Below are positions 8,391-63,405 of a stretch of 64,000 bases of DNA, piece after piece. The translations under genes and the position numbers were made by a program. Within the stretch, counting starts at the first letter, position 1. Each line of letters opens with the position of its first letter. Under the pieces are notes generated by a model. It was not told the DNA's origin, did not search any database, and saw only the letters and a list, made by a program, of their open reading frames with translations. The stretch is from Spirochaetia bacterium (GTDB taxonomy: Bacteria; Spirochaetota; Spirochaetia; SZUA-6; Fen-1364): positions 24,061-88,060 of the forward strand of contig JBEKQU010000007.1 in assembly GCA_049519415.1 (NCBI GenBank), written 5' to 3'.

Positions 8391-9482
8391 ATGATGACTG
8401 AGGAGGCGCAAGCCAGGCAGGAAGCCTTCTGGAATCGCGAGCCTGCAGACAGGCCGGTGTGGGGGGTGAGCATCGGCTTCTTTCTGAACGAGGCATACCC
8501 TCGGGCCATGGCAAAGATCCCCCAGGGCCTCGTTCACCCGGACGACATTCCAATTGCAGAGATCCTGAAAGACTGCGACGAAAGGTTTGCTCTTCATCAG
8601 GGCCTCGGGGACTTCCCCTGCACGTGCGGCCCATTCTCCGGCATCCCCTGGCTTGAAGCGATCGCCGGCTGCCCTGTCATGGCGTCGCCGAGCAGCCTCT
8701 GGGCTGAGCCATGCTGCAATGACATCGGGGCCTGGCGCCCGCCGGGACCTGCCCGGCAAAGCGCGTGGGGACGTAAGCTGCTCGAGCTGATGGCCGCGCT
8801 GGTCAAGCACGCGGAGGGACGCTACCAGATATCTCCGGCCCTCATGCGGGGGCCTCTTGACATCCTGGCTGCACTGCGCGGTTCTTCCGGGCTCGTCCTC
8901 GACATGATCGACCATCCCGAGCGCGTCAACGCCGCGCTCGAGCATGGCGTCGGGATCTGGCAGGAGATCGGCCAGGCGCAGCTTGCCCTGCTGCCGCCAT
9001 CCCCGCAGGGGTACTTTGCGCTGGACGGCGCTCTTCGATCGTGGGCGCCAGACAAGCTGGTGTGGCTCCAGGAGGACGCGATGGCGCTGCTTTCCCCGGA
9101 TCTCTACCGCAGGCAGGTCCTTCCGCTCGACCGGAGACTCTCCGACGATTTCCGCTGCGTCGCTTTCCACCTGCATGGGTCCGCATTATGGGCGATAGAC
9201 GATCTGGTCGAAGTGCCGGGCATCGACGTGCTGGAGCTGAACCTCGAGGACGCAATGTGCGACGTTGAAGGCACGTTCGCGGGATGGAAGAAGATCCAGC
9301 AGCGCAAGCCTCTGGTGGTGTGGCGAAAGTACGGGAACGACTTCGGTTCATGGCTTAAGCGGATCTACAACGAGCTGCGACCCGATGGATTAAACATCCA
9401 GGTCAGCGTGCGCAACCGGGCCGAGGCAGAGGAAGTCATGGATGCGTTTCGCTCAGGCGACAATCGCCAAGACGATAGATGA
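8391..9482 (+). CDS. URO-D / MtaA-CmuA superfamily protein, paralog 1
   Basis: N-terminal ...REPADRPVWG motif and the C-terminal TIM-barrel signature VAFHLHGSALWAIDDLVEVPGIDVLELNLE. The Cys of the H-x-C-G zinc motif is replaced (HLHG). Confidence 0.6.
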   Translation: MMTEEAQARQEAFWNREPADRPVWGVSIGFFLNEAYPRAMAKIPQGLVHPDDIPIAEILKDCDERFALHQGLGDFPCTCGPFSGIPWLEAIAGCPVMASPSSLWAEPCCNDIGAWRPPGPARQSAWGRKLLELMAALVKHAEGRYQISPALMRGPLDILAALRGSSGLVLDMIDHPERVNAALEHGVGIWQEIGQAQLALLPPSPQGYFALDGALRSWAPDKLVWLQEDAMALLSPDLYRRQVLPLDRRLSDDFRCVAFHLHGSALWAIDDLVEVPGIDVLELNLEDAMCDVEGTFAGWKKIQQRKPLVVWRKYGNDFGSWLKRIYNELRPDGLNIQVSVRNRAEAEEVMDAFRSGDNRQDDR

Positions 9483-10687
9483 ACAGCGCAAAAGAAGGCG
9501 CAAGAGAAGCGCATGAACAGGGGAGACCATTTTCTGAGGACTTCCGCCGGCTTCCGATGGCTGAAATGCGGGCGATTGTCGCCCGGTTCGAGCGGAGAGT
9601 CGCGGCGGCGCAGGAATCACGCCCCTCAAACAAAGAGGAGGTGAAGAAGGCCGTCCGCAGGCAGGGCGCGCTGAATTGCCCGGTCTGGCTGAACACGCTG
9701 TCCTATGACGCGATCGTTCGCTATGGCGATGATCTGGCGGACCTGTTGTGCGAGTATCCGGATGATCTGATCTTCGTGGAAGCGTACGAGCAGTCGATCG
9801 GCTATCAGGGGCAGCGAGTTGACGCCCCCTTGCATCCGGTCGAGCTCCTGATGCAAGAGTCCCAGTGGAGCGACGAATGGGGGACTCAGTGGGGGCACGC
9901 CTTGGGAGGCGTGGGTCCGCATCCAATGGATTTCCCGATCAAGGACTGGGCGCAGCTCGATGAATACCTTGAAAAGCATTTCGCGAACCCGTACGCGCCG
10001 GGACGGATGGACGCGGCTGCCGCAATTGTCAATCGGTTCAAGCCTTTGCGGTATTGCGTCGGGACGCTCCCGTTCTCGATCAAAGCGCGGCTGTTCAACC
10101 TCAGGGGAACGGAGAACGTGCTGATGGACCTGTCGCTGAACGAGGCGGAGCTGAGGCGGCTGGCGGAGGCCGTGTGCGAATATTCGCGTGCGATGGTTCG
10201 CAACTGGGCCGGGCTGGGCGTCGATGCCGTGTTCCCGATGGACGATTGGGGCACGCAGAACGCGCTTCTCATTTCACCCGCAATGTGGCGCAGCTTCTTC
10301 AAGCCCTACTATAAGGCGATTTTCGATGAAGCGCACCAGGCGGGCCTGGACGTCTTCTATCATAGCTGCGGCAATATCATGGAAATCATCGGCGACCTGA
10401 TCGACATCGGCGTTGACGTGCTTCACCCCCTGCAGCCGGGCCCCCTAGATCTTCGTGAAGTTGCACGCCGCTTCGGGGGGAAGGTCTCTTTCTGCGGAGC
10501 CATCGATGTCCAGCGCTTGCTGCCCTCGGCTGAGCCTTCAGAGATCAGGAAAGAGATCCGCAGGATCATCGACACACTAGGATCGCCATTCGGGAACAGC
10601 TTCATCCCGGCGCCGGCTAATGTGCTTGGACCGGATATTCCCTTTCAAAATCTAAGGGCCATGTTCGAAGCCTGCCACGCACGTTGA
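9479..10687 (+). CDS. URO-D / MtaA-CmuA superfamily methyltransferase-like protein, paralog 2
   Basis: DDWGTQNALLISPAMWR ... FYHSCGNIMEIIGDLIDIGVDVLHPLQP (H-x-C-G motif). Start overlaps the stop of paralog 1 (ATGA). Close paralog of 44002..45165. Confidence 0.8.
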   Translation: MNSAKEGAREAHEQGRPFSEDFRRLPMAEMRAIVARFERRVAAAQESRPSNKEEVKKAVRRQGALNCPVWLNTLSYDAIVRYGDDLADLLCEYPDDLIFVEAYEQSIGYQGQRVDAPLHPVELLMQESQWSDEWGTQWGHALGGVGPHPMDFPIKDWAQLDEYLEKHFANPYAPGRMDAAAAIVNRFKPLRYCVGTLPFSIKARLFNLRGTENVLMDLSLNEAELRRLAEAVCEYSRAMVRNWAGLGVDAVFPMDDWGTQNALLISPAMWRSFFKPYYKAIFDEAHQAGLDVFYHSCGNIMEIIGDLIDIGVDVLHPLQPGPLDLREVARRFGGKVSFCGAIDVQRLLPSAEPSEIRKEIRRIIDTLGSPFGNSFIPAPANVLGPDIPFQNLRAMFEACHAR

Positions 10688-10716
10688 TAAATCATGCGGC
10701 CAACTGGCAGGCGCGT

Positions 10717-11817
10717 TTATTGTTGAGCGAATTTGCTGATGGTTTTCTGAGCTTTCGCGGCGATGAAAGCCCCGAGAAGGGCGTTGCCGTAGCCGTGCGG
10801 ATGCACTCCGTCGCACGCAACCTGCGTGGGTACGTCCACTTTGAATAGATGCTGCAGGGGTGCCGTATCGATCAGGTGGACTTTTGTATCGCCTTTTTCG
10901 TTTGAGATGGATACAGTATGCGCCAGCTCTTTCGCATGCCAGCCGAGCGGCGGCACAATGCAGAATACCAGGGCATTCGGACATGCTGTACGCAGGGAAG
11001 CAAGCCATAGCAGATACGCGTCAGTGACGTCCAAATGCCTCAAGGTGCCGGCCTCTCTTATAAAATCGTTCGAACCCATCGCGCAGAATATATAATCGGG
11101 TTCGGGGAGCAATTTCGAGTCGATGAGCCGGGAATAGTCCCTGCAATAATGATCCCAGGTGTCCGTCAATGGAGGCATTTGAAGATGCGTGATTACCATG
11201 CCCTGGCCCCCGGTGCCAAGCTGGCCGTATTCGCAGCCCAACGCGGCGCAGACAAGCGGGAACCAGGTGGTACGGGCATTGTTATGCGCCAGATTGCCGT
11301 AGAAATGGGTGTCTTTGTCCAGGGCAAGCAACTCTGAATACACCCCTTCCGTGAAGGAATCCCCATAGCAGATCGCGGTCCTCGGACGTCTTGGAACGGA
11401 AATAAGAGAGGCGCCGTCGTTCACTTCGAAACCGGCTATTCGCAGGCTGTACAGCGATGAGTCCCAGCGTTCCCGGGAGAGCATCGCCGAGCGAAAATAC
11501 AGGTCAATCCGATGCTGTGCCGGCGGATCTTCTCCATGATACAAGGGGATCACATAGTGCTCTTCCGTTTTTGAGAGCTGCTCGGAAACAAACGGCCCAA
11601 AATCAACAGAGTATTCGACCATCGGCATTGCAGTCGAAGCACAGCCGATATTTCCAGCGCCGCCGATAATGATGCCGATGTCGGAGGCGTTTTTAAATAC
11701 AGCCTTGATGTACGCCCCGGGCATGTTTGCTTCTATTTTTGCGTCTGGTCCAATTCCCGTTTTTTTCCAGACATAGGGCGCGAGCAGAATGTCTTCGCTG
11801 TCGATAGTGATCCGCAT
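10717..11817 (-). CDS. SGNH/GDSL-family hydrolase (putative carbohydrate esterase) with an N-terminal extra domain
   Basis: GDS motif (AICYGDSFTEGV) and D-x-x-H motif (CDGVHPHGYG). ATG at 11815-11817 sits 17 nt downstream of the permease gene. Lower GC than the surroundings. Confidence 0.7.
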   Translation of the reverse strand: MRITIDSEDILLAPYVWKKTGIGPDAKIEANMPGAYIKAVFKNASDIGIIIGGAGNIGCASTAMPMVEYSVDFGPFVSEQLSKTEEHYVIPLYHGEDPPAQHRIDLYFRSAMLSRERWDSSLYSLRIAGFEVNDGASLISVPRRPRTAICYGDSFTEGVYSELLALDKDTHFYGNLAHNNARTTWFPLVCAALGCEYGQLGTGGQGMVITHLQMPPLTDTWDHYCRDYSRLIDSKLLPEPDYIFCAMGSNDFIREAGTLRHLDVTDAYLLWLASLRTACPNALVFCIVPPLGWHAKELAHTVSISNEKGDTKVHLIDTAPLQHLFKVDVPTQVACDGVHPHGYGNALLGAFIAAKAQKTISKFAQQ

Positions 11818-11834
11818 CGTCCGGCTCGCGGTCT

Positions 11835-12674
11835 TCAGGCTTTCAACCCCGTGGTGGCCATGCCCTCGACAATCTGACGCTGGAAGAAAAAGTAAAAGAT
11901 GATCTGAGGAATCAGCATCATGATGACCGCACGCATCATGGCGGCCAGGTCCTGTCCGTATTGCTGCTTGAAAAAAGAAGCCGCAAGGGGAATGGTGAAA
12001 TTCTTGATGCTGCTCAAGAGAATCGATGCCAGGGTCCACTCGTTCCAGGCCCAGAGAAAGTTGAAAATGATCAGCGTCGCGATGATGGGCGCGATCAGCG
12101 GCACAACAATAGTGATGAAGATTCTCAAGACGCCGCAGCCGTCGATGATCCCCGCTTCCTCCAACTCGAGCGGGACTCCCTTCATTGCGCCGACGAAAAC
12201 AAGGGTGTTGAAGGGAATGGAACCGGCGATGTAGGGGAAAGGAAGTCCATAGATGCTGTTGGTGCCGATGCCCAGCGGTTTGAGGGTCAAGGCAATGGTA
12301 TAGACAGGGTACAGGATGATGAAAAGCGGAACCGCGGCGCCCAACAGGAACACGTAATAGAAGAAATTGCCGAACCCTTCATGCCGATGGTGGAGACGCG
12401 CGATGGCAAAAGAGCTCGGGAGGTTGATAAAGAGACAGCCGAGCGTTGTGATCGTTGTCACAATGAGGCTGTTCTTGAACAGGTTGCCCATGTTGGATTT
12501 GAGAAATGTATCGATGTACAAGGCGAAATCAAGTTTGGCGGGCAGTCCGAGAGGCTCATTGTAGATCGTGGTGTTGTTCTTGAAGGACAGAATGAAGCCC
12601 CAGATGAAGGGAAAAAACATGACAACGCAGATCAGGATGGCCCCGATGTAGATGATGATTCGTTTTGATTTCAT
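11835..12674 (-). CDS. Sugar ABC transporter permease (MalG-like)
   Basis: 279 aa, TM-rich, with an EAA loop (LEEAGIIDGCG). Lower-GC gene. Confidence 0.8.
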   Translation of the reverse strand: MKSKRIIIYIGAILICVVMFFPFIWGFILSFKNNTTIYNEPLGLPAKLDFALYIDTFLKSNMGNLFKNSLIVTTITTLGCLFINLPSSFAIARLHHRHEGFGNFFYYVFLLGAAVPLFIILYPVYTIALTLKPLGIGTNSIYGLPFPYIAGSIPFNTLVFVGAMKGVPLELEEAGIIDGCGVLRIFITIVVPLIAPIIATLIIFNFLWAWNEWTLASILLSSIKNFTIPLAASFFKQQYGQDLAAMMRAVIMMLIPQIIFYFFFQRQIVEGMATTGLKA

Positions 12675-12683
12675 CGTGTCCTC

Positions 12684-13559
12684 CTAATCCTCAATTCTTC
12701 TCGCGGTAATCCTCAGCGTTCCCACTGAAAACACCATGAGAATCACAAACATGAGAAAAGCGATCGAGGATGCATAGCCGGCCTGCCGCGCCCAGACAAG
12801 CCGCTCATACATATACGAAGCCACCGTATGAGAGTAGTAATTCGGTCCACCGTTGGTGAGAATATACACGGTCTGCAAACTCTGAATCGCATTAAGAACG
12901 ATATAGATGGTCACTATTTTCAAGGTTTCCTTCAGCATCGGTATCGTGATGAACCTGGTGTTTTGCCATCCCGAAGCTCCATCCATCTGTGAAGCCTCGA
13001 AAAGCTCCCGGGGAATCATCCTGAGTCCGGCCATGAACAATACCGAATAGAAGCCGAGGGCTTTCCAGCTTTCGATGACCGTGACCGTGTAGGGAGTCAA
13101 ATACTTTCCCCCGATCCATTGGAAGGCAAGCGCATCGAGGTGAACGGATTTCAGCAGTATGTTGAGGATCCCGATTCCCGGATCCACAATGAAGAACCAG
13201 ATTTGGGTGGTCAATATTGTTGACAGAATGTAAGGCGTGAAGCACAAAAGCTTCACGACATCACTTCCGCGAAATTTCATATTGATGAACATTCCCAGCA
13301 GAAAGGAAAAGGGAATGATGAGGATGAGCTCGCCAATCGTGATGATTGCAGAATTGCTGAGAGCAATCCGAAGATGAGTGTCGGCAAACATGCTCAGGTA
13401 ATTAGCCAGGCCAACGAAACGCCCCGGCATGAAGGTGGGCTTGTTCTGGAAAGAGATGAGAAGCGAATAGAAGATGGGATACACCGTGTAGACGCCGAAA
13501 AAGATCAGGACGGGAGTAAAGAAGAGAAGTTTGATCCACCGTTTGCAGTACTTGAACAT
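12684..13559 (-). CDS. Sugar ABC transporter permease (MalF-like)
   Basis: 291 aa, TM-rich, with an EAA loop (FEASQMDGASGW). Confidence 0.8.
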   Translation of the reverse strand: MFKYCKRWIKLLFFTPVLIFFGVYTVYPIFYSLLISFQNKPTFMPGRFVGLANYLSMFADTHLRIALSNSAIITIGELILIIPFSFLLGMFINMKFRGSDVVKLLCFTPYILSTILTTQIWFFIVDPGIGILNILLKSVHLDALAFQWIGGKYLTPYTVTVIESWKALGFYSVLFMAGLRMIPRELFEASQMDGASGWQNTRFITIPMLKETLKIVTIYIVLNAIQSLQTVYILTNGGPNYYSHTVASYMYERLVWARQAGYASSIAFLMFVILMVFSVGTLRITARRIED

Positions 13560-13699
13560 GCTTCAGCCTCCTTGAGCCTCTCTGCAAAACATGCTGAATA
13601 CAAACCGAGATCGTGCGTGAACAAAAGTCCCTGCCGAACAATCTCCCCTGGAGGGCATCGTTCGACAGGGACACATGAGAACGGAATCTGCCGCCTGGC

Positions 13700-15034
13700 C
13701 TACTTGCTCTTGCGCAGGTCCGCCAGCTTGCCGTTCACGACATCGATGGCAGCATCGATCTTCGCAAGCTCTCCGGGGATATCCTTGGCAGTCATGCTTC
13801 CGTTCATGAGGCTGTTTTCGAGGTTTCCTCTGATTGTGCCCCAGCCCTCTGTCCAAAGATCCGCGTTGGTGTCCCAGATCCGGTAGGACGCATAGTCTGA
13901 ATTATACGATGCGATGATGCTATTGTCCTGGATCAAGGCAATCTGCTGTTTCATGATGGCGCCCAGCTTGGATGCATCAAACTTGACGTTGACAGGGAGG
14001 ATGGATCCAAGGCTCAACGCCAGCGGGAAGCCCTGTGCAGAGTAGCGGAACTTGTTGAAATCCACGATCGCTTTAAGCTTGTCAGGGTCGCTCGCCACGT
14101 TCGCGCCAACTCCAAAGCCATTGGGAACCGCCCTGACCTTGACGTTCTGCTTGTACGGGGACTTGGGGAATGTGACGCCCCAGTTGAAGACGTAGTTCTT
14201 CTCCAGGGGCTGCCCGATGATTTTTCCGAGCTGGTCAGAGGGAAGGGTGATGGCTGCCGCCTTGCCGGAGTTGAAGAGGCTGCAGGCCTGATCGAAGGAC
14301 ATGGTGGAGTTATTCTGCGGGAAGGCGCCCAGGGCGTACAATTCCGCCTCGGAATAGTAGGCCTGTTTGAAATCAGCATCCTGGGCCCTCAATGTATGAG
14401 TCTTGAACACCTGATCCGCCTGGTCCCAGATGCCCCAGAGAACCAGCCAGTGCTCGAAGCCCCACACCGCCCAACCCTCTTTCGAGCCGTAGGCGAGGGT
14501 GACAACGCCGTTCCTCTTGAACACGGGCACATCGGCCTTGAGCTCCTCATAGGTGGTGGGAATCTTCAATCCGTACTTGTCGAAGAGAGCCTTGTTCCAG
14601 ACCCAGCCCTGCACCTGGCTCTCCGAGGGGTATGCCGCGATCCTGCCGTCTGGAGTTGTGATTTCAGTCAGGGCGCCTTTTACAAACGTTGCCTTGAAAG
14701 CGGCATCGTAGTAAGGGGTGAGATCAAGCAAGGATTGCGAGTTCATCAGGTAGTCGACAAAATGCGCTCCGTTGTCCCAGAACAAGTCGGGCAGGCTGTT
14801 GGATTGGACAAGGATCGGCATCTTCACCGGCATATCCGCATGATCGATGACCTGGTAATCGAATTCAATGTTCGGATGCGCCTTCACATACGCGTCAATG
14901 GCAACGCCGACCTGATCGGTTTCCTTGGCAAAGGGGGTCTGATACGTGATCGTAACCTTGGCTTGGGCAAATGACGGTATGCCGACAACAAGCATGCACA
15001 TTGCTACAAGAAACAACAAACCCAGTTTCTTCAT
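13700..15034 (-). CDS. ABC transporter substrate-binding protein (extracellular solute-binding family 1)
   Basis: Signal peptide MKKLGLLFLVAMCMLVVGIPSFAQA. AGGAGG RBS precedes the ATG at 15034. Confidence 0.85.
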   Translation of the reverse strand: MKKLGLLFLVAMCMLVVGIPSFAQAKVTITYQTPFAKETDQVGVAIDAYVKAHPNIEFDYQVIDHADMPVKMPILVQSNSLPDLFWDNGAHFVDYLMNSQSLLDLTPYYDAAFKATFVKGALTEITTPDGRIAAYPSESQVQGWVWNKALFDKYGLKIPTTYEELKADVPVFKRNGVVTLAYGSKEGWAVWGFEHWLVLWGIWDQADQVFKTHTLRAQDADFKQAYYSEAELYALGAFPQNNSTMSFDQACSLFNSGKAAAITLPSDQLGKIIGQPLEKNYVFNWGVTFPKSPYKQNVKVRAVPNGFGVGANVASDPDKLKAIVDFNKFRYSAQGFPLALSLGSILPVNVKFDASKLGAIMKQQIALIQDNSIIASYNSDYASYRIWDTNADLWTEGWGTIRGNLENSLMNGSMTAKDIPGELAKIDAAIDVVNGKLADLRKSK

Positions 15035-15199
15035 CTGTGGATCCTCCTGTTCTGGATGCCTGGTCGTCTACGACGACCGCTTTAAAAAGGCGTGTTCTAT
15101 GGCAGGTTTTTGCTGGCCTCCCGCCATATATCGATCTCGAATCGTCCTCCTTCTTTACGGATAGGTTGCTTCCTCATCAACGTGAGGTCATTTTCACGA

Positions 15200-15246
15200 G
15201 GAGTTTAGGACTGACCGTGGCGGTTGTCAATTGTTAACAAATCCTG
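15200..15246 (-). promoter_or_regulatory. Putative sigma70 promoter, TTGACA-17-TAAACT on the minus strand, with an adjacent palindromic TTGTTAACAA element (minus-strand read TTGTTAACAATTGACAAC)
   Basis: Read directly. Located upstream of the minus-strand ABC operon. A near-identical 19-mer recurs at 39611-39629. Confidence 0.4.
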
Positions 15247-15305
15247 ACTCAATAGAATTGTCCCCTGCACGCAGCCTGTGGGCCACGAAGGGCCATTGGC
15301 GTCGA

Positions 15306-16379
15306 TCATCGCCTGGCGGCCAGCTTCTTTCTGAATCCTTCCCTCTCCAGCACTTCCGGATTCAAGATATTGGGCGGAAGCTCGCCTTTCGACACGGCAA
15401 GCATTCCCTCGATGATGGGCTTGATCGTGGCCCGGCCGGCCTGACGGGTGGATGCCAGCCAGTGCGGCGTGAGCATGACATTGTCGAGCGACAGCAGGGG
15501 ACTCGCCAATGGAAGCGGCTCCGTTTCGAACACGTCCAACCCGGCGCCGGCAATGCGGTGTTCGCGCAGGAATCGAACCAGGGCCTCTTCGTCCACCATC
15601 TCCCCGCGCGCGACATTGATGAAATACGCGGTGGGCTTCATGAGACCCAGCTCCCGCTCGCCGATGAGCCTCCGCGTGCGCGCGTCCAGGCGGCCATTAA
15701 GGCTCACGTAGTCGGATTCCCGGAGCAGTTGATCAAGGCTGCTCACCAGGGCCACGCCGAGCTCTTTCGCCTGTATGGGATCCGCATGCGGGGAATAGGA
15801 GATGATGCGCATGTGGAACGGCGCGATCAGTCGTGCCAGCTCGCGTCCTGTCTGGCCGAACCCTACGATGCCGAGGGTCTGACCGGGCAGGTCGTCGCCG
15901 ACCGCTTCTGCTTGGAGCGCCCAGCGATATTCGCGCACGATCCGTTCTTGCAAAAAGAAGCGCCGGGAAAGGGCGAGAATGAAGATCATGGCCGCGGAGG
16001 CAGTCGAATGCGTCAACCCATGGGGTGAGTTGAACACGACGACGTCGTTCTCCGTACATGCCCTCAGGTCGATCTTGTCGTAGCCGATCCCCGCGCGTCC
16101 TATCGCCACGAGGTTGGCTGATCCCCGCGTGAAGGCGGATGCCTTTACGTATGGACGGCAGACCACGATGCCGTTGGCAGAAGCGACATGCTGCGGCTGT
16201 ATCTCCATGGAATAGAGGCGGTCCTGATAGGTGGGATCGTTCGCCTTCGGCCGCTGGTCTTCCAGGAATCCGTAGCGGATATGCGGCGTCTGGTCAAGAA
16301 GGTCCCACGCGAGCTCGGTGTTGGGCCTGCCCGTTTCGTCGCTCTGATCGCCGGTGAATTTCAGCTCGAAGTGCTTCAC
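15306..16379 (-). CDS. D-isomer-specific 2-hydroxyacid dehydrogenase family, NAD-binding (glyoxylate/hydroxypyruvate or 2-ketogluconate reductase-like)
   Basis: GIVGFGQTGRELARL Rossmann motif and a catalytic R/E/H region. GTG start at 16377-16379 preceded by a GGAGAG RBS directly after the stop of the upstream enolase-superfamily gene. Confidence 0.8.
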   Translation of the reverse strand: MKHFELKFTGDQSDETGRPNTELAWDLLDQTPHIRYGFLEDQRPKANDPTYQDRLYSMEIQPQHVASANGIVVCRPYVKASAFTRGSANLVAIGRAGIGYDKIDLRACTENDVVVFNSPHGLTHSTASAAMIFILALSRRFFLQERIVREYRWALQAEAVGDDLPGQTLGIVGFGQTGRELARLIAPFHMRIISYSPHADPIQAKELGVALVSSLDQLLRESDYVSLNGRLDARTRRLIGERELGLMKPTAYFINVARGEMVDEEALVRFLREHRIAGAGLDVFETEPLPLASPLLSLDNVMLTPHWLASTRQAGRATIKPIIEGMLAVSKGELPPNILNPEVLEREGFRKKLAARR

Positions 16380-16392
16380 GCGGCGCTCTCCG

Positions 16393-17559
16393 TTACTGCT
16401 TCTTCCCACGGACACCGAACCGCTTCTCCCATCCCTCCTTGTTTGCATCGAAATACGCATCGGGGTCGTAGGGATGCTCGCGCACGACTTCCAGGTTCAG
16501 GTCCAGTCCCAGGCCCGGCTTGTCCGGGAGCGACAGGTGCCCGTTTTGCGGATCGATGTCGGGATGCCAGGTGACCAGGTCCCGGGTCCAGGCCACATTG
16601 AACGGATCGAAGTGCTCCTGGATCAGAAAGTTGGGCACGCAGGCCGCAAGCTGCAGGCAGATCGCGGTGGCGACCGGACCTCCGCTCTGGTGCGGAGCGA
16701 TCCACGCGCCGCTGGCGCGGGCTATCTGTGCTACCGCAAGCGTGTTCATGATCCCGCCAAGGCACATGGGCTCCGGCTGGAATATACCGACATGTCCGCC
16801 CTTGGCGAGGGTCATGAACTTTCCCACACGTTCGAATTGCTCCCCTGTTGCCACGGGGATGGGACAGCGGGCGGCGATCTCGTTGGTAAGCTCCTCGCGT
16901 TCGGCCGTGGTCGGCTCCTCCCACCAGTACAGATCCAGCGGGAAAAGCCTGTGGGCGACTCGCAGCGCCTCGGGAGGCGTGAATCTGCAATGCACGTCGA
17001 TGAGGATCTTGAAGTCGCGGCCGAACCGGTCGCGAATGGCCTTCAGGATATCGTATGCCACCTGCAGGTTATTCTCATCGATGGTGCCCGACGCGGTGCC
17101 GAAGGGATCGATCTTCAGCGCACGGAAGCCTTTTCCCGCCGCCTTCACCGCCATGTCCAGGAAGGCTTCCGGTGTGCGTTCGGCGCGATACCATCCGTTG
17201 GCGTAGGCGAGGATGCTGTCCCTGAGCCGCCCGCCCAGCAGTTGATGGATCGGCACGCCGAGGGACTTGCCGAGAATGTCCCAACAGGCCACCTCGATGC
17301 CCGCTGCCGCAAGGCGATGGATGTGCCCGCCGTCCTGGATCGGCTCCAGAACTGCTCGCAGCACCGCGTTCACCTGCCGGGGGTCCCTGCCGATGGCAAA
17401 ATGAGCCAGCTCGTGGATGGCGGCTTCTGTGGTCTTGATGAAGCCGTTCATGGTCGCCTCGCCGATCCCGTAGAGGCCATCGTCCGTATGCACCTTCACG
17501 AACAGCCAGTTCTTCCATTCGGCGCTGACCGTGAAGGTCTCGATCCGTTCGATTTTCAT
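16393..17559 (-). CDS. Enolase-superfamily sugar-acid dehydratase (D-mannonate / D-galactonate dehydratase family, MR/MLE-type)
   Basis: MKIERIETFTV... N-terminal capping domain and KIDPFG...IDVHCRF...WWEEP barrel motifs typical of the ManD/GalD subgroup. Confidence 0.8.
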   Translation of the reverse strand: MKIERIETFTVSAEWKNWLFVKVHTDDGLYGIGEATMNGFIKTTEAAIHELAHFAIGRDPRQVNAVLRAVLEPIQDGGHIHRLAAAGIEVACWDILGKSLGVPIHQLLGGRLRDSILAYANGWYRAERTPEAFLDMAVKAAGKGFRALKIDPFGTASGTIDENNLQVAYDILKAIRDRFGRDFKILIDVHCRFTPPEALRVAHRLFPLDLYWWEEPTTAEREELTNEIAARCPIPVATGEQFERVGKFMTLAKGGHVGIFQPEPMCLGGIMNTLAVAQIARASGAWIAPHQSGGPVATAICLQLAACVPNFLIQEHFDPFNVAWTRDLVTWHPDIDPQNGHLSLPDKPGLGLDLNLEVVREHPYDPDAYFDANKEGWEKRFGVRGKKQ

Positions 17560-18224
17560 CCGTTTTCCCCCTGTTTCCCGAAGACCCCGTCCAGGTCCTC
17601 TTCCCGCATCAAGAGGACCCGCGACGGAGCCGCCTCCACTCCTTCGAGCTTGAGGGGAAGGGCGACCAGCAGGTAGTCTCCCGGCGCCACACTCGTGAGG
17701 TCCAGCATCTCTATGATGAGGCCGCCCGCGCCGCAGAAGGCGACGTGATTGGTGTCGCTCATCTCTCCATAGGGCCCGATGGAGAAACCGTCAATGCCGA
17801 GCACTTCGACGCCCGAATGAATGAGAACATCGATGGCCTCGTCGAGGAATGAGATATAGTCGGCCCCGAGCACGCCGGTGTGCAGTCGCGCGGAGTTCGC
17901 CGTCCTGAACAACGCCCTGCGGACAGGGGAAAAGCCCATCTCATCCAGCTCGGCCCGGCCGATATGGCCGGGGCCCCGGTGCTCGAAGACCCTGCAGGGT
18001 CCCATGAGCTTCCCGAGCTCGACCGCGTCAATGGTTTGCCCGTTCCTGCGGAAGTGCAGCGGCGCGTCGATATGAGTGCCCGAATGGGCGATCATATCGA
18101 GGCGGGTGGCGACGGTCTCATTCCCTCCGGGCAGGGGCTGATGCGTGACGGTGAACGCGGGCCGCTGTCCTCCCGGCCAGATCGGCGTGCGCGGCGAAAC
18201 GCCGATGCTTACATCGAAAATCAT
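17556..18224 (-). CDS. Cyclase-family metal-dependent hydrolase (kynurenine formamidase-like fold)
   Basis: HSGTHIDAPLHF motif. 222 aa. Confidence 0.7.
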   Translation of the reverse strand: MIFDVSIGVSPRTPIWPGGQRPAFTVTHQPLPGGNETVATRLDMIAHSGTHIDAPLHFRRNGQTIDAVELGKLMGPCRVFEHRGPGHIGRAELDEMGFSPVRRALFRTANSARLHTGVLGADYISFLDEAIDVLIHSGVEVLGIDGFSIGPYGEMSDTNHVAFCGAGGLIIEMLDLTSVAPGDYLLVALPLKLEGVEAAPSRVLLMREEDLDGVFGKQGENG

Positions 18225-18422: not shown

Positions 18423-18881
18423 ATGATCGTAGCGAAACTCGAACGCGCGGCGCAGCAGACGGCTCTCACCCCGAAATTCGAGAAGGCATATCGCTTCCTC
18501 CTGGATGCAAAGGGTCGCACCCTGGCTGAAGGGAAAATCGAGATTGATGGCGACAGGGTCTACGCCATGGTCCAATCCTACGAGACCCAGCCGGGCGGGG
18601 AGCCGAAGTTCGAAGCGCACCGGAGATACGCCGACATTCAGTACATTACCGGCGGGGAAGAGCTCATCGGCTGGGCCCCGCTGGAGAAGATGACCGTAAC
18701 GCAGGAATACGACCAGGCCAAGGATGTTGCCCTTGGAAAGGTTGCATCAGCGGATGTGACATCAGTGCGGCTTTTCGCGGGAGAGCTCGGGGTATTCTAC
18801 CCCAGCGATGCGCACGCTCCCAAGCAGGCAGTGGGGAAGCCGGGGAAGGTGCACAAGATCGTCGTCAAGGTGGCGATGTGA
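18423..18881 (+). CDS. YhcH/YjgK/YiaL family protein (DUF386, sugar anomerase-like)
   Basis: 152 aa. MIVAKLE...KFEKAYRFLLD...FEAHRRYADIQYI pattern typical of this family. GGGAGG RBS. Confidence 0.7.
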   Translation: MIVAKLERAAQQTALTPKFEKAYRFLLDAKGRTLAEGKIEIDGDRVYAMVQSYETQPGGEPKFEAHRRYADIQYITGGEELIGWAPLEKMTVTQEYDQAKDVALGKVASADVTSVRLFAGELGVFYPSDAHAPKQAVGKPGKVHKIVVKVAM

Positions 18882-19929
18882 CAGTTTCGTAAATAGCGCA
18901 CGCGTTTTCCATCGGGGTATCGATCTCGAAAAAGTGCGTGGGCGCGACCACGCAGCCGCTCCCTCCGGAAGCCCTGACGATCCGGGCGGTCTCCCTGCGC
19001 ACATCGTCGGGGTTTCCGTGGGCAAGAACGCTCTGGAGTCCGATCATCCCGTGGAAGGTTATATGCCTGCCGAAATCCCTGAACAAACCCTCGGCATCCA
19101 TTCCTTCGGCCTCCACCTGGACCGTTTGGTAAATATCGAGGCCCATGTCGATCCACAGCGGCATATGGCGGCGGTTGGAGCCGCAGGAATGCAGCATGAC
19201 TTTCGCGCCGTACCTATGCCCGAGCTCTATGAAGGCCTTGAGCTTCGGCGCAAAGACTGACTTCCAGGAGTCGAGGCTCATAAGGGGACCGGCTTGCGTC
19301 CCATAGTCGTCCCCTATCCAGAGAATGTCGATTTTTCCCTTTGCCGTCTTCAGGCCTCGTTCGGCGACCTCCAGGAGGATCTCCTGCCGCCGCTCCATGA
19401 GCGCCAGTCCCACTGGATCCTCTGTGGCGACATCCATAAGAACCTGCTCCATGCCCCTCGCGAAAGAGGTTCCATTGATGAGGTCCATCAAGCCAGGGTG
19501 CCCGAAGACAACCACGTACTCGTCGCGGACCTTGTCGCACTGACGCTCCAATTCGGAGAAATTGAATAGATCCGGCGAGGGCCAGGGATAGGAGCTCACC
19601 TCGTCCATCGTCTCGATGCGGGCGAAAGGCCTGTATTCGACTTCATCGTAGCTTCCGAATGAGTTGACGACGGGCCTGCGGCGCACGCCCCACATGTCGG
19701 TGAAGAACCCCTTTTCGTCCTTGGGATAGGGTTTTCTGAAATCAGCGTGCGAGAGGTGCCTGAAATCGATGTCGAGCTTTCTGAGGGCCTGCTCGTAGTC
19801 CGCAACGCCGAGATGGCTTGCTATGCGCTTGGGGACCTGCCCTTCCGCGATGAAATCCATGGGCAGCCTGTCGCAGGCCTCGTGCCTCAGCGCTGATTCA
19901 AACCGCGCGCGATGATTCATGGGGCTCAT
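18865..19929 (-). CDS. URO-D / MtaA-CmuA superfamily methyltransferase-like protein, paralog 3
   Basis: N-terminal MNHRARFESALRHEACDRLPMDF and IGDDYGTQAGPLMSL ... VMLHSCGSNRRHMPLWIDMGLDIYQTVQ (H-x-C-G motif). The ATG at 19927-19929 overlaps the upstream stop. The ORF track's 140-aa N-terminal extension is read-through. Confidence 0.75.
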   Translation of the reverse strand: MSPMNHRARFESALRHEACDRLPMDFIAEGQVPKRIASHLGVADYEQALRKLDIDFRHLSHADFRKPYPKDEKGFFTDMWGVRRRPVVNSFGSYDEVEYRPFARIETMDEVSSYPWPSPDLFNFSELERQCDKVRDEYVVVFGHPGLMDLINGTSFARGMEQVLMDVATEDPVGLALMERRQEILLEVAERGLKTAKGKIDILWIGDDYGTQAGPLMSLDSWKSVFAPKLKAFIELGHRYGAKVMLHSCGSNRRHMPLWIDMGLDIYQTVQVEAEGMDAEGLFRDFGRHITFHGMIGLQSVLAHGNPDDVRRETARIVRASGGSGCVVAPTHFFEIDTPMENACAIYETVTSPP

Positions 19930-20897
19930 GGGGAACGCGCAGCTCCGAACTCCGCGAACGCCTCGAGCATGCAGTCGATATTCTCCCTCTTGCCGCCCAG
20001 CCCGAGGATGTCGGTGGGAATGAGCCCGATCAGCCCGCCTCCCCTGTTTCCCAGGCACTCGACCAGTTCCTTCACTTCGCGGCGGATATCTTCCCTGGTG
20101 CCTGAAATGCCGGTGGTCTGATAGCTCACGGGACATGCGAAGCAAATCTTCCCCGAGAAGTCCTCTCCCAGCCGGCGGATCCCGTTGATATTCGGCTGGC
20201 CAAGATTGAGGATGTCGACCCCTATTTCGATGAAATCGGGGATGATGTCGTAGATGTAGCCGCAGCAGTGAAAATACAGGTCCAGTCCGAGGGAATGAGC
20301 CAGCTCCACCTGCTGCCGATAGCGCGGCTTGAAGATCTCCCGCCACAGGGCGGGGGAAATCAGGAGACTCTCCTGGGTCCCCCAGTCATCAGCCAGGTGC
20401 ACCGCGCTGAATCCCTGGGCCGCAATGAGGGTGAAGAGTTTTTCCTCGAAGCCGAAGACGACATCGGCCAAATTCTCGACCAGCTCGCGGTCCACGTAGA
20501 GATCCTCGATCAAAGCGGAGAAGCCGCGAAGGAAGGTCATGATCGTGAAGCCCGATAGGACGAGATTTGCCTTATAATACTTATCAGGGCCGTACTGGGC
20601 CCGGGCGGTCCTCAGGTCTTCGAATCGAGTCGGATCATTGGGGTCCGGGGCCTGGTAGCGCTTCAGATCCTCGCGGCAGGCGATGATCGGGAACTTGGGC
20701 TGCCCCATGGTGAGGTCGTTTTCGAGGTGAGTCCACTCGAAACCCCATTCGGAGTGCAGCCTGTCAGGGCCGGTGTAGTTTTTCACCACCTCGACGTTCA
20801 CGATGTCCGACGTGGCCAGGTCGTAGGGATTGGAGAGCGGGATGCGCTCGGGGTTCTCGAATCGAACCGCTTTCCTGACCAGGTCCTTGCCGCTCAT
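19926..20897 (-). CDS. URO-D / MtaA-CmuA superfamily methyltransferase-like protein, paralog 4
   Basis: ADDWGTQESLLISPALWR ... LYFHCCGYIYDIIPDFIEIGVDILNLGQP (H-C-C-G variant of the zinc motif). Confidence 0.8.
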   Translation of the reverse strand: MSGKDLVRKAVRFENPERIPLSNPYDLATSDIVNVEVVKNYTGPDRLHSEWGFEWTHLENDLTMGQPKFPIIACREDLKRYQAPDPNDPTRFEDLRTARAQYGPDKYYKANLVLSGFTIMTFLRGFSALIEDLYVDRELVENLADVVFGFEEKLFTLIAAQGFSAVHLADDWGTQESLLISPALWREIFKPRYRQQVELAHSLGLDLYFHCCGYIYDIIPDFIEIGVDILNLGQPNINGIRRLGEDFSGKICFACPVSYQTTGISGTREDIRREVKELVECLGNRGGGLIGLIPTDILGLGGKRENIDCMLEAFAEFGAARSP

Positions 20898-20900: not shown

Positions 20901-22100
20901 TCACCGCCCCAAGAGCGCGGCGGTCTCCCTGGCCACCACTATTTCCTCATCAGTGGGCACGACCCAGACGGGGATCTTCGAATCCTTTGCGGAGATGGGA
21001 GCTTCCTTTTTTATGGTCCGCTTGTTGATCTCCTCATCCAGGATGATGCCGAACTCCTGGAGCCCTTCCAGCACGCGGCTTCGGATATAAGGGCTGGACT
21101 CCCCGGTCCCCGCGGCGAAGGTGATGACATCCACATGCCCGAGGATGAGCATCATGCTGCCCAGGTACTTGCGCACCTGGTATACGTACGTGTCGATGGC
21201 CAGGCGAGCCCGTTCGTGGCCCCGCTCCGCCGCTGTCTGGAGATCCCTCATGTCGAAGCCCATGCCGGAGATCGATGCGATTCCCGCCTGGCTCATCATC
21301 CTGTCCACGATCTCCTTTGGCGTCCCTTCGCCTTTGGACCAGAGGTAGGGAATGAGAAAACCGTCCATGTCCGAGCTTCTCACCGACATGGGAACGCCGG
21401 TATTCATTGTAAAGCCCGCTGTCCCGTCGATCGTTTTTCCTCCGCGGATGGCGACCACCGATGAGCTTCCCCCGAGGTGGAGCTGGACCGCATTGAACTC
21501 TCGGGCGTCCTTGCCGAGTATCTGCGCCATGCGGCCGTTCACGAAAAAATGGCTTGCCCCGTGTCCCATACTGCGCCGCACATCGTACTTCTGCGTCCAG
21601 TCCCAGGGGATCGGATAGATGCGCGCGTACTCGGGCCATCCCTGGAAAAAGAAGGTCTCGAAGAGGCCGATCAGCGGTTTGCCCGGCGCCGCCGTCCTGA
21701 AGGCCCGCACCGCGTCCACGACGAGCCGGTTGTGCATGGGGCAGATGTAGTCCGCGAACTCTTCCATGCCGGCGAGGACTTCGTCCGTCATTTCCCGGCA
21801 GCCCGTGATCCCCTTGGCGCAGACCGGCTTGAATCCCACCGCGTCCAGCGCGGCCAGGTCGCGGAGAGCTCCATCGGCTTTTTCCGTGAGCTTCCGCAGG
21901 GATACGTCAATGGCCTCCGAGGAGTTTCTCACGGGGAGGGTCTGTTCCTTTGATGCGCCGTCGCGGTTCGTCCAGGCCACGTGAGCGTCGGTTTCTCCGA
22001 CCCTCTCGACGAGGACCCTGGCAAGGGTGTTCTCCGAAGGCATCTCAATGAGCCTGCACTTCAGGGTGGAGCTTCCGACGTTGGCCACGAGTATCTTCAT
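20901..22100 (-). CDS. ackA: Acetate/propionate kinase family (acetate kinase)
   Basis: MKILVANVGSSTLKCRL N-terminus. AGGTGG RBS precedes the ATG at 22100. About 400 aa. Confidence 0.85.
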   Translation of the reverse strand: MKILVANVGSSTLKCRLIEMPSENTLARVLVERVGETDAHVAWTNRDGASKEQTLPVRNSSEAIDVSLRKLTEKADGALRDLAALDAVGFKPVCAKGITGCREMTDEVLAGMEEFADYICPMHNRLVVDAVRAFRTAAPGKPLIGLFETFFFQGWPEYARIYPIPWDWTQKYDVRRSMGHGASHFFVNGRMAQILGKDAREFNAVQLHLGGSSSVVAIRGGKTIDGTAGFTMNTGVPMSVRSSDMDGFLIPYLWSKGEGTPKEIVDRMMSQAGIASISGMGFDMRDLQTAAERGHERARLAIDTYVYQVRKYLGSMMLILGHVDVITFAAGTGESSPYIRSRVLEGLQEFGIILDEEINKRTIKKEAPISAKDSKIPVWVVPTDEEIVVARETAALLGR

Positions 22101-23113: not shown

Positions 23114-23118
23114 CGCGC

Positions 23119-24354: not shown

Positions 24355-24457
24355 CTCCTCCTCCTTGCTTCGGTCCGGGAGCTCCGGCCGCGTTTTTTTC
24401 GCGTTCGGTATATCATCCGATCATGCCGATCCGCAACGCCAGGACTTCAAAACTCTT

Positions 24458-27417: not shown

Positions 27418-27479
27418 TGGTGTGAGCAGGGACGGTTTTGCGCGGACTCTTATGGAGCTATTGATAATGCCCCCCTCTC

Positions 27480-29619: not shown

Positions 29620-29652
29620 TCCGCGCCGCGGCAGGGGAGGGAGGGTTTTTCG

Positions 29653-45969: not shown

Positions 45970-45970
45970 C

Positions 45971-46651: not shown

Positions 46652-46666
46652 GGAATTTCCTCCTCT

Positions 46667-48391: not shown

Positions 48392-48452
48392 TTCTGCTCC
48401 TCCGGCACATCCTACGAACAAATGGCTCGCCCTGAGGAGCGGGCGGACCAGC

Positions 48453-48480
48453 AACACTCTTTAGAAATGTCCCTGTGGCC
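48453..48480. repeat. 26-nt motif, copy B: ACACTCTTTAGAAATGTCCCTGTGGCCCGG. Overlaps the TAA stop of the GH63-like gene and sits 69 nt upstream of the UxaE-like start.
   Basis: Compare 28718..28745. On the minus strand it is followed 37 nt later by TTCGTAGG and then the RBS. Confidence 0.5.
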
Positions 48481-62235: not shown

Positions 62236-62262
62236 CAAGGATTTTCATAAAGCAAATCCTTG
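62236..62262. promoter_or_regulatory. Perfect 9-bp inverted repeat CAAGGATTT-N9-AAATCCTTG in the divergent intergenic region. Downstream TTGACA-N18-ATGAAT is a candidate promoter for URO-D paralog 8.
   Basis: Read directly from the sequence. Confidence 0.35.
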
Positions 62263-62340
62263 GAGCCATGCCCCGGTTGCCGCCTGCCGGCAGTGTTGAC
62301 ACAATCGCTGACACGTGACATGAATCCCCGGGAGAGAAGT

Positions 62341-63405
62341 ATGCCGAAAGATTCAATGAGCCCAAGAGAGAGATGGCTCGCGGTCCTGACGCGAAAGTCC
62401 CCCGACAGGGTGCCCATGGATTACTGGGCAACGGAGGAGGCAACGCGCGGGCTGCTGAAGCATCTTGGCTGCGCCGATGAATTGGCCTTGTTCCACCGGC
62501 TGCACATCGACAAGCCGCTGACAGTCGGACCGCGCTACACCGGACCGGCGATTCCCGGCGATTCGGACGAGTTCGGCTGCCGCTACAGGGACGTGCGGTA
62601 CGGCACGGGGAGCTACCGGGAATGCGTCCATCACCCCCTGGCCGAATACGAAACCTTGGAGGATGTGAAGAAGGGGTATCGATGGCCCAGCCCGGACTGG
62701 TGGGACTACTCGGGCATCCCGGACCAGACGGCCGCGCGAAGCGGCTTTCCCGTGCAGGGCGGCGGCTCCGAGCCGTTCCTGATCTACAAGAACCTCCGCG
62801 GAGATGAGCGTGCGTTCATGGACCTCGTGGAAAAACCGGACATCGCCCATTGGTGCCTGGACAGGCTGTTCGATCTTGCATGCGAAAACTCCCGGCGCAT
62901 TTACGAGGCAATCCCCGGCAGGGTGACCCTCTCCTACGTGGCCGAGGACATGGGGTCCCAGGACGGCCTCATGTTCTCCCCAGCGCAGATCCGCCAATTC
63001 TTCATACCCCGGATGAAGCGGATCATCGACTTGGCGCACCAGGCCGGCGCGTTCGTGTTCCACCATAATGACGGAGGGGTGCGGCGCATCATCCCCGACA
63101 TGATAGAGGCGGGGATCGATGTGCTGAACCCGATACAGTGGCGGTGCGGGGGCATGGAGCGCGAAGGGCTGAAGAAGGATTTCGGGGACCGGCTCATTTT
63201 CCACGGCGCGGTGGACAATCAACGGACCCTGCCGTTCGGCACGGTGGATGATGTCCGGCAGGAGGTGCAGGACAACCTGCGGATCCTCGGCGCCGGAGGA
63301 GGCTATATCCTCGGGCCGTGCCACAACATCCAGGCCGTGAGCCCCCCGCAAAACATCGTGGCCCTGTACGAAACCGGCTATGCGCTAGGATACACGAGGG
63401 GATGA
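62341..63405 (+). CDS. URO-D / MtaA-CmuA superfamily protein, paralog 8
   Basis: MSPRERWLAVLTRKSPDRVPMDYW N-terminus and AEDMGSQDGLMFSP ... FVFHHNDGGVRRIIPDMIEAGIDVLNPIQ. The zinc-motif Cys is absent (HHNDG). Confidence 0.7.
   Translation: MPKDSMSPRERWLAVLTRKSPDRVPMDYWATEEATRGLLKHLGCADELALFHRLHIDKPLTVGPRYTGPAIPGDSDEFGCRYRDVRYGTGSYRECVHHPLAEYETLEDVKKGYRWPSPDWWDYSGIPDQTAARSGFPVQGGGSEPFLIYKNLRGDERAFMDLVEKPDIAHWCLDRLFDLACENSRRIYEAIPGRVTLSYVAEDMGSQDGLMFSPAQIRQFFIPRMKRIIDLAHQAGAFVFHHNDGGVRRIIPDMIEAGIDVLNPIQWRCGGMEREGLKKDFGDRLIFHGAVDNQRTLPFGTVDDVRQEVQDNLRILGAGGGYILGPCHNIQAVSPPQNIVALYETGYALGYTRG

Follow-up and report, generated by a model that had tools for sequence, protein, structure and literature searches.

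Introduction

What would eight divergent members of the uroporphyrinogen decarboxylase (URO-D) superfamily do among the sugar-catabolism genes of an uncultured spirochaete-like bacterium? The question is raised by a 64,000-nt stretch of Spirochaetia contig JBEKQU010000007.1 (hereafter the window; G+C ~62%, ~52 genes), in which eight open reading frames (ORFs), named U1–U8 in order of position, encode such proteins. This number is far beyond chance. The explanation that we favour, at a probability of about 50%, is that the eight are substrate-specific methyltransferases I (MT-Is), which would pass methyl groups from O-methylated sugars or uronates to a corrinoid protein whose gene lies elsewhere in the genome. 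What carries the argument is the operonic order at two loci of other genomes (L031 and L054), a relative fused to corrinoid-binding domains (P0297) and the sister clades; here, L numbers denote the loci of relatives from other genomes or metagenomes, and P0297 is one relative protein.

An O-methyl group on a sugar stands in the way of the usual catabolic enzymes. Such groups are found as 4-O-methylglucuronate in xylan, as 2-O-methylfucose and 2-O-methylxylose in rhamnogalacturonan-II and as 6-O-methylgalactose in porphyran. In the arabinogalactan proteins of mosses and ferns, 3-O-methylrhamnose occurs (PMC12209756). The sole sugar demethylation that we found described in the literature is O2-dependent (PMC6292453), and is carried out by a cytochrome P450 6-O-methyl-D-galactose demethylase of marine Bacteroidota (PMC6292453, PMC10033563). 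Such an enzyme cannot work in anoxic peat, sediment or gut. Aryl methyl ethers and haloalkanes are demethylated by published MT-Is of the UroD superfamily, of which some use zinc and others do not; for many clades of the superfamily no substrate is known (PMC13222342, PMC10418091).

Results

Eight old paralogs of the URO-D fold

The eight gene positions proposed in an initial annotation of the window held. An ORF was present at each, and independent calls on identical metagenome contigs (JGI 3300038451, SRR13021960 and others) gave the same gene boundaries (Table 1). A tblastn-type search of the window returned no ninth URO-D copy. In pairwise BLAST comparisons U2 and U7 were 53% identical and every other pair 22–37% identical; judged by this mutual divergence, the paralogs are old.

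Seven of the paralogs pass the Pfam URO-D model PF01208, with 38.6–95.7 bits against a gathering score of 23.9 bits. The eighth, U1, has no Pfam or NCBIfam match, and its homologues are mostly labelled “hypothetical”, with several at ~50% identity carrying PF01208. A U1-family profile of 29 sequences was colinear with the U5 family (hhalign E 1.4e-4, probability 52%, 255 columns) and set AFHLHGS against FFHSCGN. The AlphaFold model (AF2) of U1, with a mean predicted local distance difference test score (pLDDT) of 92.7, gave MtaA (4AY7) as the top Foldseek match (E 1.2e-10), followed by UroDs. On the basis of this profile comparison and predicted structure, U1 is assigned to the URO-D fold despite the missing Pfam match, and the proposal of a single superfamily is thereby upheld for all eight. 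The (β/α)8 barrel was superimposable on both UroD and MtaA. In the fold searches MtaA was the top structural match and closest solved structure, and no solved O-demethylase MT-I was among the matches.

Curated family models were then compared. Scores for TIGR01463 (MtaA/CmuA, cut-off 235.4 bits) were 23–53.5 bits and those for the MtaA_Meth model at most 49.7 bits, the MtaA NF040654 and MtbA NF041608 equivalog cut-offs being 400–600 bits. The hemE model TIGR01464 (cut-off 302.95 bits) reached 33.7 bits at best, for U7, and gave no match at E<=0.01 for U1, U3, U4, U6 and U8. For every scoring paralog the MtaA-type NCBIfam models scored above hemE. Pfam matches began at profile positions 93–160 of 346, which left the N-terminal third of the UroD profile unmatched; in UroD this third holds substrate-binding residues. 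Among the annotated window genes there were none for hem or other tetrapyrrole biosynthesis. By these sequence comparisons none of the eight is HemE, and scores so far short of the curated cut-offs also rule out bona fide membership of the MtaA/CmuA family. The initial placement of the proteins on the methyltransferase side of the superfamily rather than with HemE is thus supported, and their assignment to the MtaA/CmuA family proper is not.

A motif in which Cys, Asp and His interchange

An H-x-C-G motif had been counted in six of the paralogs. We find it in five, as HSCG in U2, U3, U5 and U7 and as HCCG in U4; in all five it aligns with HICG of MtaA. The H-C-D-G of U6 aligns as H-x-D-G, and in U6 orthologues the His, Asp and Gly are conserved and the Cys is not. 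The lack of the Cys in U1 and U8 is borne out (H-L-H-G in U1; H-N-D-G in U8, correcting an earlier reading of HHNDG), but U6 joins them. Both H260 and H262 are invariant in 29 U1 homologues.

Within the U5 orthologous group (76 members, >=50% identity), position 268 is Cys in 38 members and Asp in 38. Cys268 (HSCG) occurs in Spirochaetota, the U5 of the window included, and in many members from the Planctomycetota–Verrucomicrobiota–Chlamydiota (PVC) group, and Asp268 (HSDG) in Chloroflexota, Acidobacteriota and some Planctomycetota and Verrucomicrobiota members. Invariant in all 76 are His266, Gly269, Asp226, His353, Cys354, Gln356 and Asp358. The zinc site of MtaA/MT2 has the ligands His-x-Cys ... 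Cys. At the position of the third ligand, which falls at the end of the last strand, U3, U5, U6 and U8 have His, U2 and U7 Asn, and U4 Asp; a Cys stands beside this position only in U5 (C354) and in U8 (Cys before His, ..PCHNIQ..). In the U5 model the residues of the motif and of the third-ligand position lie at or just past the C-terminal ends of strands 262–266 and 347–351, which is the catalytic face of the barrel.

What the paralogs share, as aligned here, is thus not H-x-C-G but H-x-[Cys/Asp/His]-G, placed where one barrel strand ends. As a fixed zinc signature H-x-C-G does not serve here, being replaced in half of a single orthologous group. The interchange of Cys, Asp and His at the motif points to a putative Lewis-acid metal site rather than to the Cys-rich thiol-activating site of MtaA or MetE. 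Absence of the motif Cys, which had been singled out as a loss, does not imply absence of a corrinoid-linked function, because relatives encoded directly beside corrinoid-protein genes carry H-T-D-G.

Corrinoid links in relatives

The window itself encodes no recognisable corrinoid protein, in agreement with the initial annotation of the 64 kb. Its six-frame translation gave no match to a hidden Markov model (HMM) from seven bona fide corrinoid proteins, tblastn searches with a corrinoid protein, a pterin-binding methyltransferase, MTHFR and FTHFS found nothing, and Pfam scans of the window genes returned neither a corrinoid protein nor Pterin_bind. These scans covered the window genes other than five labelled in the contig record, a transposase-like gene and a second permease. 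The adjoining 10 kb on the left side hold toxin–antitoxin genes, GH18, an esterase and an ABC-2 transporter, and no corrinoid protein.

Relatives in other genomes present a different picture. In L031, from a metagenome-assembled genome (MAG) of Planctomycetaceae, a U5 that is 60% identical to that of the window and is nested in the main U5 orthologous group in a neighbour-joining tree stands in the order U6, U5, corrinoid protein, MTHFR, Pterin_bind methyltransferase, FTHFS; these genes share a strand and are separated by 38–229 nt. The corrinoid protein of this cluster comprises PF02607 and PF02310, with the motifs GDLHDIGKN and SALLTTT. In L054, an Anaerolineales MAG, U5 (57% identical, H-S-D-G) lies in a co-directional run that begins with an HpcH aldolase, a short-chain dehydrogenase/reductase (SDR), a GHL6/fucosidase-like hydrolase, a lactonase-type Amidohydro_2 protein and a further SDR. 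After U5 the run continues with D-lyxose isomerase, DHDPS, an FGGY kinase, a second URO-D protein, an aldose-epimerase-like protein and 2-Hacid_dh, and the last gene identified in it encodes a corrinoid protein. At a third locus of the same group (L071, U5 52% identical), MTHFR and FTHFS genes lie 2–5 kb from U5.

In a sister clade (40–46% identity), a corrinoid-protein gene is directly upstream of the URO-D gene and abuts it in L080, L081, L084 and L085. P0297 (648 aa) joins a U5-like domain (39% identity over 385 aa, with FFHSCG and AAVHNIQ) to B12-binding_2 and B12-binding domains. U8-like proteins with the motifs of U8 adjoin a corrinoid gene in L100 (48% identity) and lie with MTHFR and methyltransferase II (MT-II) genes in L102 (45%). 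In a search that started from the corrinoid protein, URO-D paralogs adjoined its gene in ~30 of 80 metagenome loci, these U8-like proteins among them.

A Pterin_bind gene adjoins the corrinoid-protein gene in L031, L099, L102, L105 and L114. A compact module of corrinoid protein, MT-II, MTHFR and FTHFS also occurs with no adjoining URO-D gene (L098, L099, L103, L105, L106 and L114), in L099 between MurB and OprB porin genes; such a module may be a general methyl-oxidation hub. Because the module also occurs alone, a shared and unlinked corrinoid/tetrahydrofolate (THF) module is a normal arrangement, and it is the one that the genome of the window would need. Taken together, the comparative data favour the possibility, left open by the initial annotation, that the corrinoid protein is encoded elsewhere. 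The contexts of the module in L098, L099, L102, L103, L105, L106 and L114 do not look acetogenic, and its MTHFR has a DUF5981 C-terminal domain. In L106 the module lies beside enolase-superfamily dehydratase and DHDPS genes.

Carbohydrate context across phyla

The paralogs belong to large uncharacterised clades of the UroD superfamily that are embedded in carbohydrate catabolism. Among species-representative genomes, the nearest U5 orthologues are from Spirochaetia MAGs (79–71% identity), followed at 50–68% by those of Planctomycetota, Verrucomicrobiota, Lentisphaerota, Kiritimatiellia, Chloroflexota, Acidobacteriota and others. Carriers are nearly all MAGs; the sole cultured carrier found was Desulfosarcina widdelii PP31, at 44% identity. 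Counted as 50%-identity clusters, 10,699 (E<=1e-3), 5,243 (E<=1e-10) and 1,189 (E<=1e-30) relatives of U5 were found among 1.84 billion cluster representatives.

ORFs within 9 kb of U5 were clustered over 79 loci of other genomes, with antisense shadow ORFs removed. The most frequent neighbours were Ldh_2 (37 loci), SDR (33), Eda (28) and 2-Hacid_dh (27), followed by U6 (26), PfkB (23), an FAA-family hydrolase (22) and a GH36-like protein (19). DHDPS and a metallo-beta-lactamase (MBL)-fold protein were each found at 14 loci, UxaE and the E2 of a 2-oxoacid dehydrogenase each at 12, and TAL/FSA at 11. Most of these recurrent families are also present in the window, at 25,973–50,452, and L068 has the same gene order as the window. 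Around U5- and U1-type genes of annotated contigs we also found RhaT, fucose isomerase with an FGGY kinase, CBM9, KduI, transketolase and sugar ABC transporters. The tie to deoxy-sugar and uronate-type catabolism is robust across phyla and not an accident of this genome.

U6 is the commonest URO-D partner of U5 and is up to 86% identical in those loci, and orthologues of U4 (66–74% identity) often adjoin U6/U5 in other phyla. A scheme in which an A-type and a B-type paralog would pair as MT-I and MT-II was rejected: the conserved partner of U5 is U6 and not a U2/U4/U7-type protein, and L031 has a pterin-binding MT-II.

Discussion

Proposed demethylation and the points against it

In the proposed mechanism each enzyme would bind a methylated sugar or sugar acid, candidates being 3-O-methylrhamnose, 2-O-methylfucose, 4-O-methylglucuronate, other O-methyl hexoses and methyl-esterified uronates. 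A divalent metal, probably Zn2+, would be held by H-x-[Cys/Asp/His]-G and the His of the last strand (plus the Cys in U5) and would polarise the O–CH3 bond. A small corrinoid protein, with its gene at another place in the genome, would accept the methyl group in its cob(I) form; a pterin-binding MT-II would then hand the methyl group to THF, and MTHFR and FTHFS would process it. The demethylated sugar would enter the dehydrogenase, 2-keto-3-deoxygluconate (KDG) kinase and Eda/DHDPS-aldolase routes encoded alongside. Several paralogs in one operon may reflect different sugar or position specificities, or heterodimers such as U5/U6. Demethylation (the MT-I direction) is favoured because the setting is catabolic, the paralogs are many, the metal site differs from that of MtaA and L031 has a separate MT-II. 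We infer this direction, the use of sugars as substrates, the metal and the presence of a corrinoid protein in the genome of the window; it is gene context that suggests a sugar as methyl donor and O-demethylation as the reaction.

Several observations weigh against this proposal. Genes for a corrinoid protein, MT-II, MTHFR and FTHFS are absent from the window and from the 10 kb beyond its left end. Among the Pfam-scanned window genes no RACo-type activator was seen, in a scan that used no dedicated activator model, and an Rfam search of the window found no cobalamin riboswitch. Among relatives, a corrinoid-protein gene lies within ~10 kb of U5 at just 7 of 79 loci, and a corrinoid or THF link is present in just 2–3 of the ~66 main-group loci. 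For the other loci the argument depends on a putative unlinked partner; as evidence, counts of corrinoid linkage alone are weak. The MtaA-type third Cys ligand is not conserved. The U5–U7 operon has no recognisable sugar-acid dehydratase, a role that these metal-binding barrels could in principle fill. We found no corrinoid-dependent sugar demethylase in the full-text literature, coverage of which mostly leaves out subscription journals.

Chemistry adds a further difficulty, in that alkyl methyl ethers are much poorer than aryl ethers for attack by cob(I). A sugar methyl ether is a poor leaving group and would need metal coordination of the ether oxygen, with which the conserved metal-type motif fits; in MtaB, zinc coordinates methanol. 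Uronate methyl esters would be much easier substrates and would fit the context of UxaE, KduD-like, KDG-kinase and Eda genes and the esterase neighbours.

Alternative explanations

Automatic annotation labels such proteins uroporphyrinogen decarboxylases, and the PF01208 matches would allow it, but eight copies with no haem-synthesis genes nearby, hemE scores of at most 33.7 bits and the unmatched N-terminal third of the UroD model make ordinary HemE enzymes practically out of the question. The main rival, a different use of the barrel, deserves more weight, though we still consider it unlikely: the paralogs could be corrinoid-independent, metal-dependent enzymes acting on sugars or sugar acids, with corrinoid links limited to some branches. 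Candidates would be a sugar-acid dehydratase, a β-eliminase releasing methanol from 4-O-methyl-uronates, an isomerase or epimerase, or a decarboxylase. This would account for the ~90% of U5 loci with no corrinoid-protein gene within 10 kb and for an operon with 2-keto-3-deoxy-acid kinases and aldolases and no recognisable dehydratase. A site in which Cys, Asp and His interchange suits a Lewis acid better than thiolate alkylation, and KduI and KduD-like neighbours suggest 4-deoxy-uronate chemistry. Against it stand L031, L054 and L071, which fall inside the same U5 orthologous group, a URO-D::B12 fusion at 39% identity and the H-x-D-G/H motifs shared by corrinoid-adjacent relatives. The unmatched substrate-binding third of UroD also counts against it, and we know of no dehydratase or eliminase with the URO-D fold. 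Nothing points to decarboxylation of sugar acids, which the initial annotation had offered as an option.

If the proteins do work with a corrinoid, their methyl donor need not be a sugar. Characterised MT-Is of the UroD superfamily use aryl methyl ethers, haloalkanes and methylthiols (PMC13222342, PMC10418091), many contigs have peat or fen in their names (a reading from the names), and U8 and some sister-clade loci lie outside a sugar context. Methoxyaromatics of peat or lignin, methanol, methylamines or methylthiols could then be the substrates, with the proximity of sugar genes following from gene density. We think this improbable, since the genes are co-transcribed with glycoside hydrolase, sugar transporter, kinase and aldolase genes in at least six phyla, no aromatic-catabolism genes were seen nearby and the corrinoid-protein gene of L054 is in the same co-directional run as sugar-catabolism genes. 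More doubtful again is transfer in the MtaA (MT-II) direction, from a corrinoid loaded by methyl-THF to a thiol or other acceptor. MtaA is the closest solved structure and the L031 cluster (FTHFS, MTHFR, Pterin_bind and corrinoid protein) could be read as synthetic, like a split MetH. Set against this are the catabolic setting, MtaA/CmuA model scores far below the cut-offs and the loss of the Cys-rich thiol-activating site (Cys/Asp 38:38, no third Cys); up to three paralogs per operon would suit substrate-specific MT-Is better.

Relation to known systems and significance

Among known systems, those nearest to the proposed one are the three-component corrinoid O-demethylases and dehalogenases with a UroD-superfamily MT-I, namely MtvB, OdmB, VdmB, MtoB and CdmB (PMC13222342). 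As in the window, many paralogs of the same superfamily occur there; these systems use a separate corrinoid protein, MT-II and activator, and relatives of the window proteins are found with corrinoid-protein, Pterin_bind, MTHFR and FTHFS genes. This likeness is one of description and not of sequence comparison. In the known systems, which belong to acetogens and methanogens, the substrates are aryl methyl ethers and haloalkanes, whereas proteins of the window type are encoded in sugar or sugar-acid operons of Spirochaetota, PVC, Chloroflexota and Acidobacteriota, usually with an unlinked corrinoid gene. No RACo/RamA activator was found among the Pfam-annotated genes of L031, L054 and L099, an annotation that included no dedicated model or reference for one.

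MtaA (4AY7), the methylcobalamin:coenzyme M methyltransferase, is 17–19% identical to the window proteins, which differ in an N-terminal region 40–110 aa longer, in the absence of a methanogenic or coenzyme M context, in a second ligand that varies (Cys/Asp/His) and in the replacement of the third Cys by His, Asn or Asp. CmuA combines a chloromethane MT-I with a corrinoid-binding domain and is reported to be an early branch of the superfamily (PMC13222342). Its fusion of URO-D and B12-binding domains is of the kind seen in P0297; the window proteins, in contrast, are single-domain. HemE/UROD lacks H-x-[C/D/H]-G, and the window proteins fail the hemE model ~10-fold and have no haem context. The P450 demethylase, which is encoded within polysaccharide-utilisation genes, resembles the proposed system in its role of removing a methyl ether that blocks sugar catabolism, but it is an unrelated protein that needs O2 and releases formaldehyde. 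The proposed system would be O2-independent and would keep the methyl group as methyl-THF.

Full-text literature, in which subscription journals are mostly not covered, yielded no description of URO-D proteins in sugar operons. The enzyme system itself is known; new here would be the predicted substrate class and the genomic organisation, both drawn from comparative genomics. More broadly, and with somewhat less than even odds, these clades may be the missing O2-independent sugar demethylases, a very large family of metal-dependent MT-Is that would pass methyl groups from the methyl ethers, or methyl esters, of sugars and uronates to a shared, unlinked corrinoid protein/MT-II/THF module. If so, URO-D paralogs would supply an anoxic route for the removal of sugar methyl groups, and thousands of genes mislabelled “uroporphyrinogen decarboxylase” would gain a function. 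A B12 requirement would be predicted for the breakdown of methylated glycans. Sugar methyl groups would flow to folate-linked one-carbon metabolism, and to acetogenesis or formate, rather than to methanol or formaldehyde. Polysaccharide degradation in Spirochaetota, PVC, Chloroflexota and Acidobacteriota would thus be tied to B12 supply and one-carbon metabolism.

Gene neighbourhoods in the window

The initial annotation had placed all eight paralogs inside sugar-acid operons. This is so for U3–U4 and for U5–U6–U7 (Table 1). U1 and U2 overlap and make up a separate unit of two genes, flanked by two sugar ABC-transporter operons, and U8 lies outside any sugar operon, between GlnE, a Big_2-domain gene and a 649-aa gene.

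Table 1. Coordinates of the URO-D paralogs and their neighbours in the window.
Feature	Position	Strand	Remarks
Sugar ABC transporter (solute-binding protein, two permeases), then ~716-aa gene	1902..7097	+	Upstream of U1–U2
U1	8391..9482	+	Very divergent URO-D-fold paralog, H-L-H-G; 4-nt overlap with U2
U2	9479..10687	+	URO-D paralog, HSCG, ~110-aa N-terminal extension; PF01208 90.3 bits
Two co-directional groups	10717..18224	-	Convergent on U1–U2; 271-nt gap (15035-15305) between groups
Upstream group: cyclase-family protein, enolase-superfamily (MR_MLE) dehydratase-like gene, 2-hydroxyacid dehydrogenase	within 10717..18224	-	
Downstream group: solute-binding protein, two ABC permeases, GDSL esterase-like gene	within 10717..18224	-	
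U3	18865..19929	-	URO-D paralog, HSCG, His at barrel-end position (..APTHFF..); PF01208 38.6 bits
U4	19926..20897	-	URO-D paralog, HCCG; PF01208 38.9 bits
Aldehyde dehydrogenase, HMGL-like aldolase, phosphotransacetylase, acetate kinase	20901..25948	-	Co-transcribed with U4–U3
MBL-fold protein, GntR/FCD regulator, Ldh_2 dehydrogenase	within 25973..34741	-	
SDR, 2-oxoacid dehydrogenase E1 alpha, E1 beta and E2, FAA-family hydrolase, 2-hydroxyacid dehydrogenase	within 25973..34741	+	
FAA-family hydrolase	32979..33764	+	Between E2 and 2-hydroxyacid dehydrogenase genes
U5–U7 operon, downstream part	34738..41673	-	In transcription order: DHDPS-like aldolase, KDG/KDGal-kinase-like PfkB, transposase-like gene, Eda, second such kinase, SDR, Zn-dependent alcohol dehydrogenase
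Eda (2-keto-3-deoxy-6-phosphogluconate aldolase)	37683..38339	-	
Transposase-like HTH_28/29/32 gene	38371..39618	-	Between KDG-kinase and Eda genes of U5–U7 operon
U5	41701..42846	-	URO-D paralog, HSCG and invariant H353-C354
U6	42877..43992	-	URO-D paralog, H-C-D-G as H-x-D-G variant
U7	44002..45165	-	URO-D paralog, HSCG, GTG start, sister of U2; PF01208 95.7 bits
U5–U7 operon, upstream part: GH63-like hydrolase, UxaE-family epimerase, FSA/transaldolase-like, KduD/gluconate-5-dehydrogenase-like SDR	45187..50452	-	
U8	62341..63405	+	URO-D paralog, H-N-D-G and ..PCHNIQ..

By the gene calls on identical contigs, U3 is the last gene of an operon Aldedh-HMGL-PTA-AckA-U4-U3. Adjoining this operon are DUF386, cyclase-family, enolase-superfamily, 2-hydroxyacid dehydrogenase, sugar ABC transporter and GDSL esterase genes. 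The gene set at 25973-34741 recurs beside U5 orthologues of other phyla, and its FAA hydrolase is 44% identical to the FAH adjoining U5 in Planctomycetes. The ORF of the 2-hydroxyacid dehydrogenase (33434-34741) overlaps the FAA hydrolase gene, and its 5' end is probably over-extended.

Rfam matched no family of any kind in the window or in seven key loci. The 716-aa gene (4737-7097, JGI call), last in its sugar ABC-transporter operon, has no Pfam match; its product could be an unclassified glycoside hydrolase. The DUF386 (YhcH/YjgK-like) gene (18423-18881, +) is convergent with U3 (-), with a 17-nt overlap of the 3' ends. Downstream of U8, the 649-aa gene begins 8 nt past the paralog (63413-64000, continuing on L095:3386-5335) and is probably co-transcribed with it. 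The 649-aa gene matches nothing in Pfam or among PDB sequences, is without a homologue in the fetched loci and lacks an Fe–S Cys pattern; its product is thus not recognisable as a corrinoid activator.

A histidine-utilisation cluster (51200-57272, +) encodes urocanase, glutamate formiminotransferase (FTCD), imidazolonepropionase and histidine ammonia-lyase. The FTCD step, which uses THF, is the sole folate-linked function of the window, and the cluster appears unrelated to the URO-D paralogs. The transposase-like gene within the U5–U7 operon is predicted to encode 378 aa on a second contig (L002) and 387 aa in the window; the insertion is present in the population, with a differing predicted length. 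The E1 alpha, E1 beta and lipoyl-E2 genes (29653-32910, +; acetoin/2-oxoacid type) have no accompanying E3 gene. The same E3-less set lies beside U5- or U1-type genes in L068, L071, L087 and L094, from several phyla, and at some loci a fused E1 alpha/beta gene also encodes the lipoyl domain.

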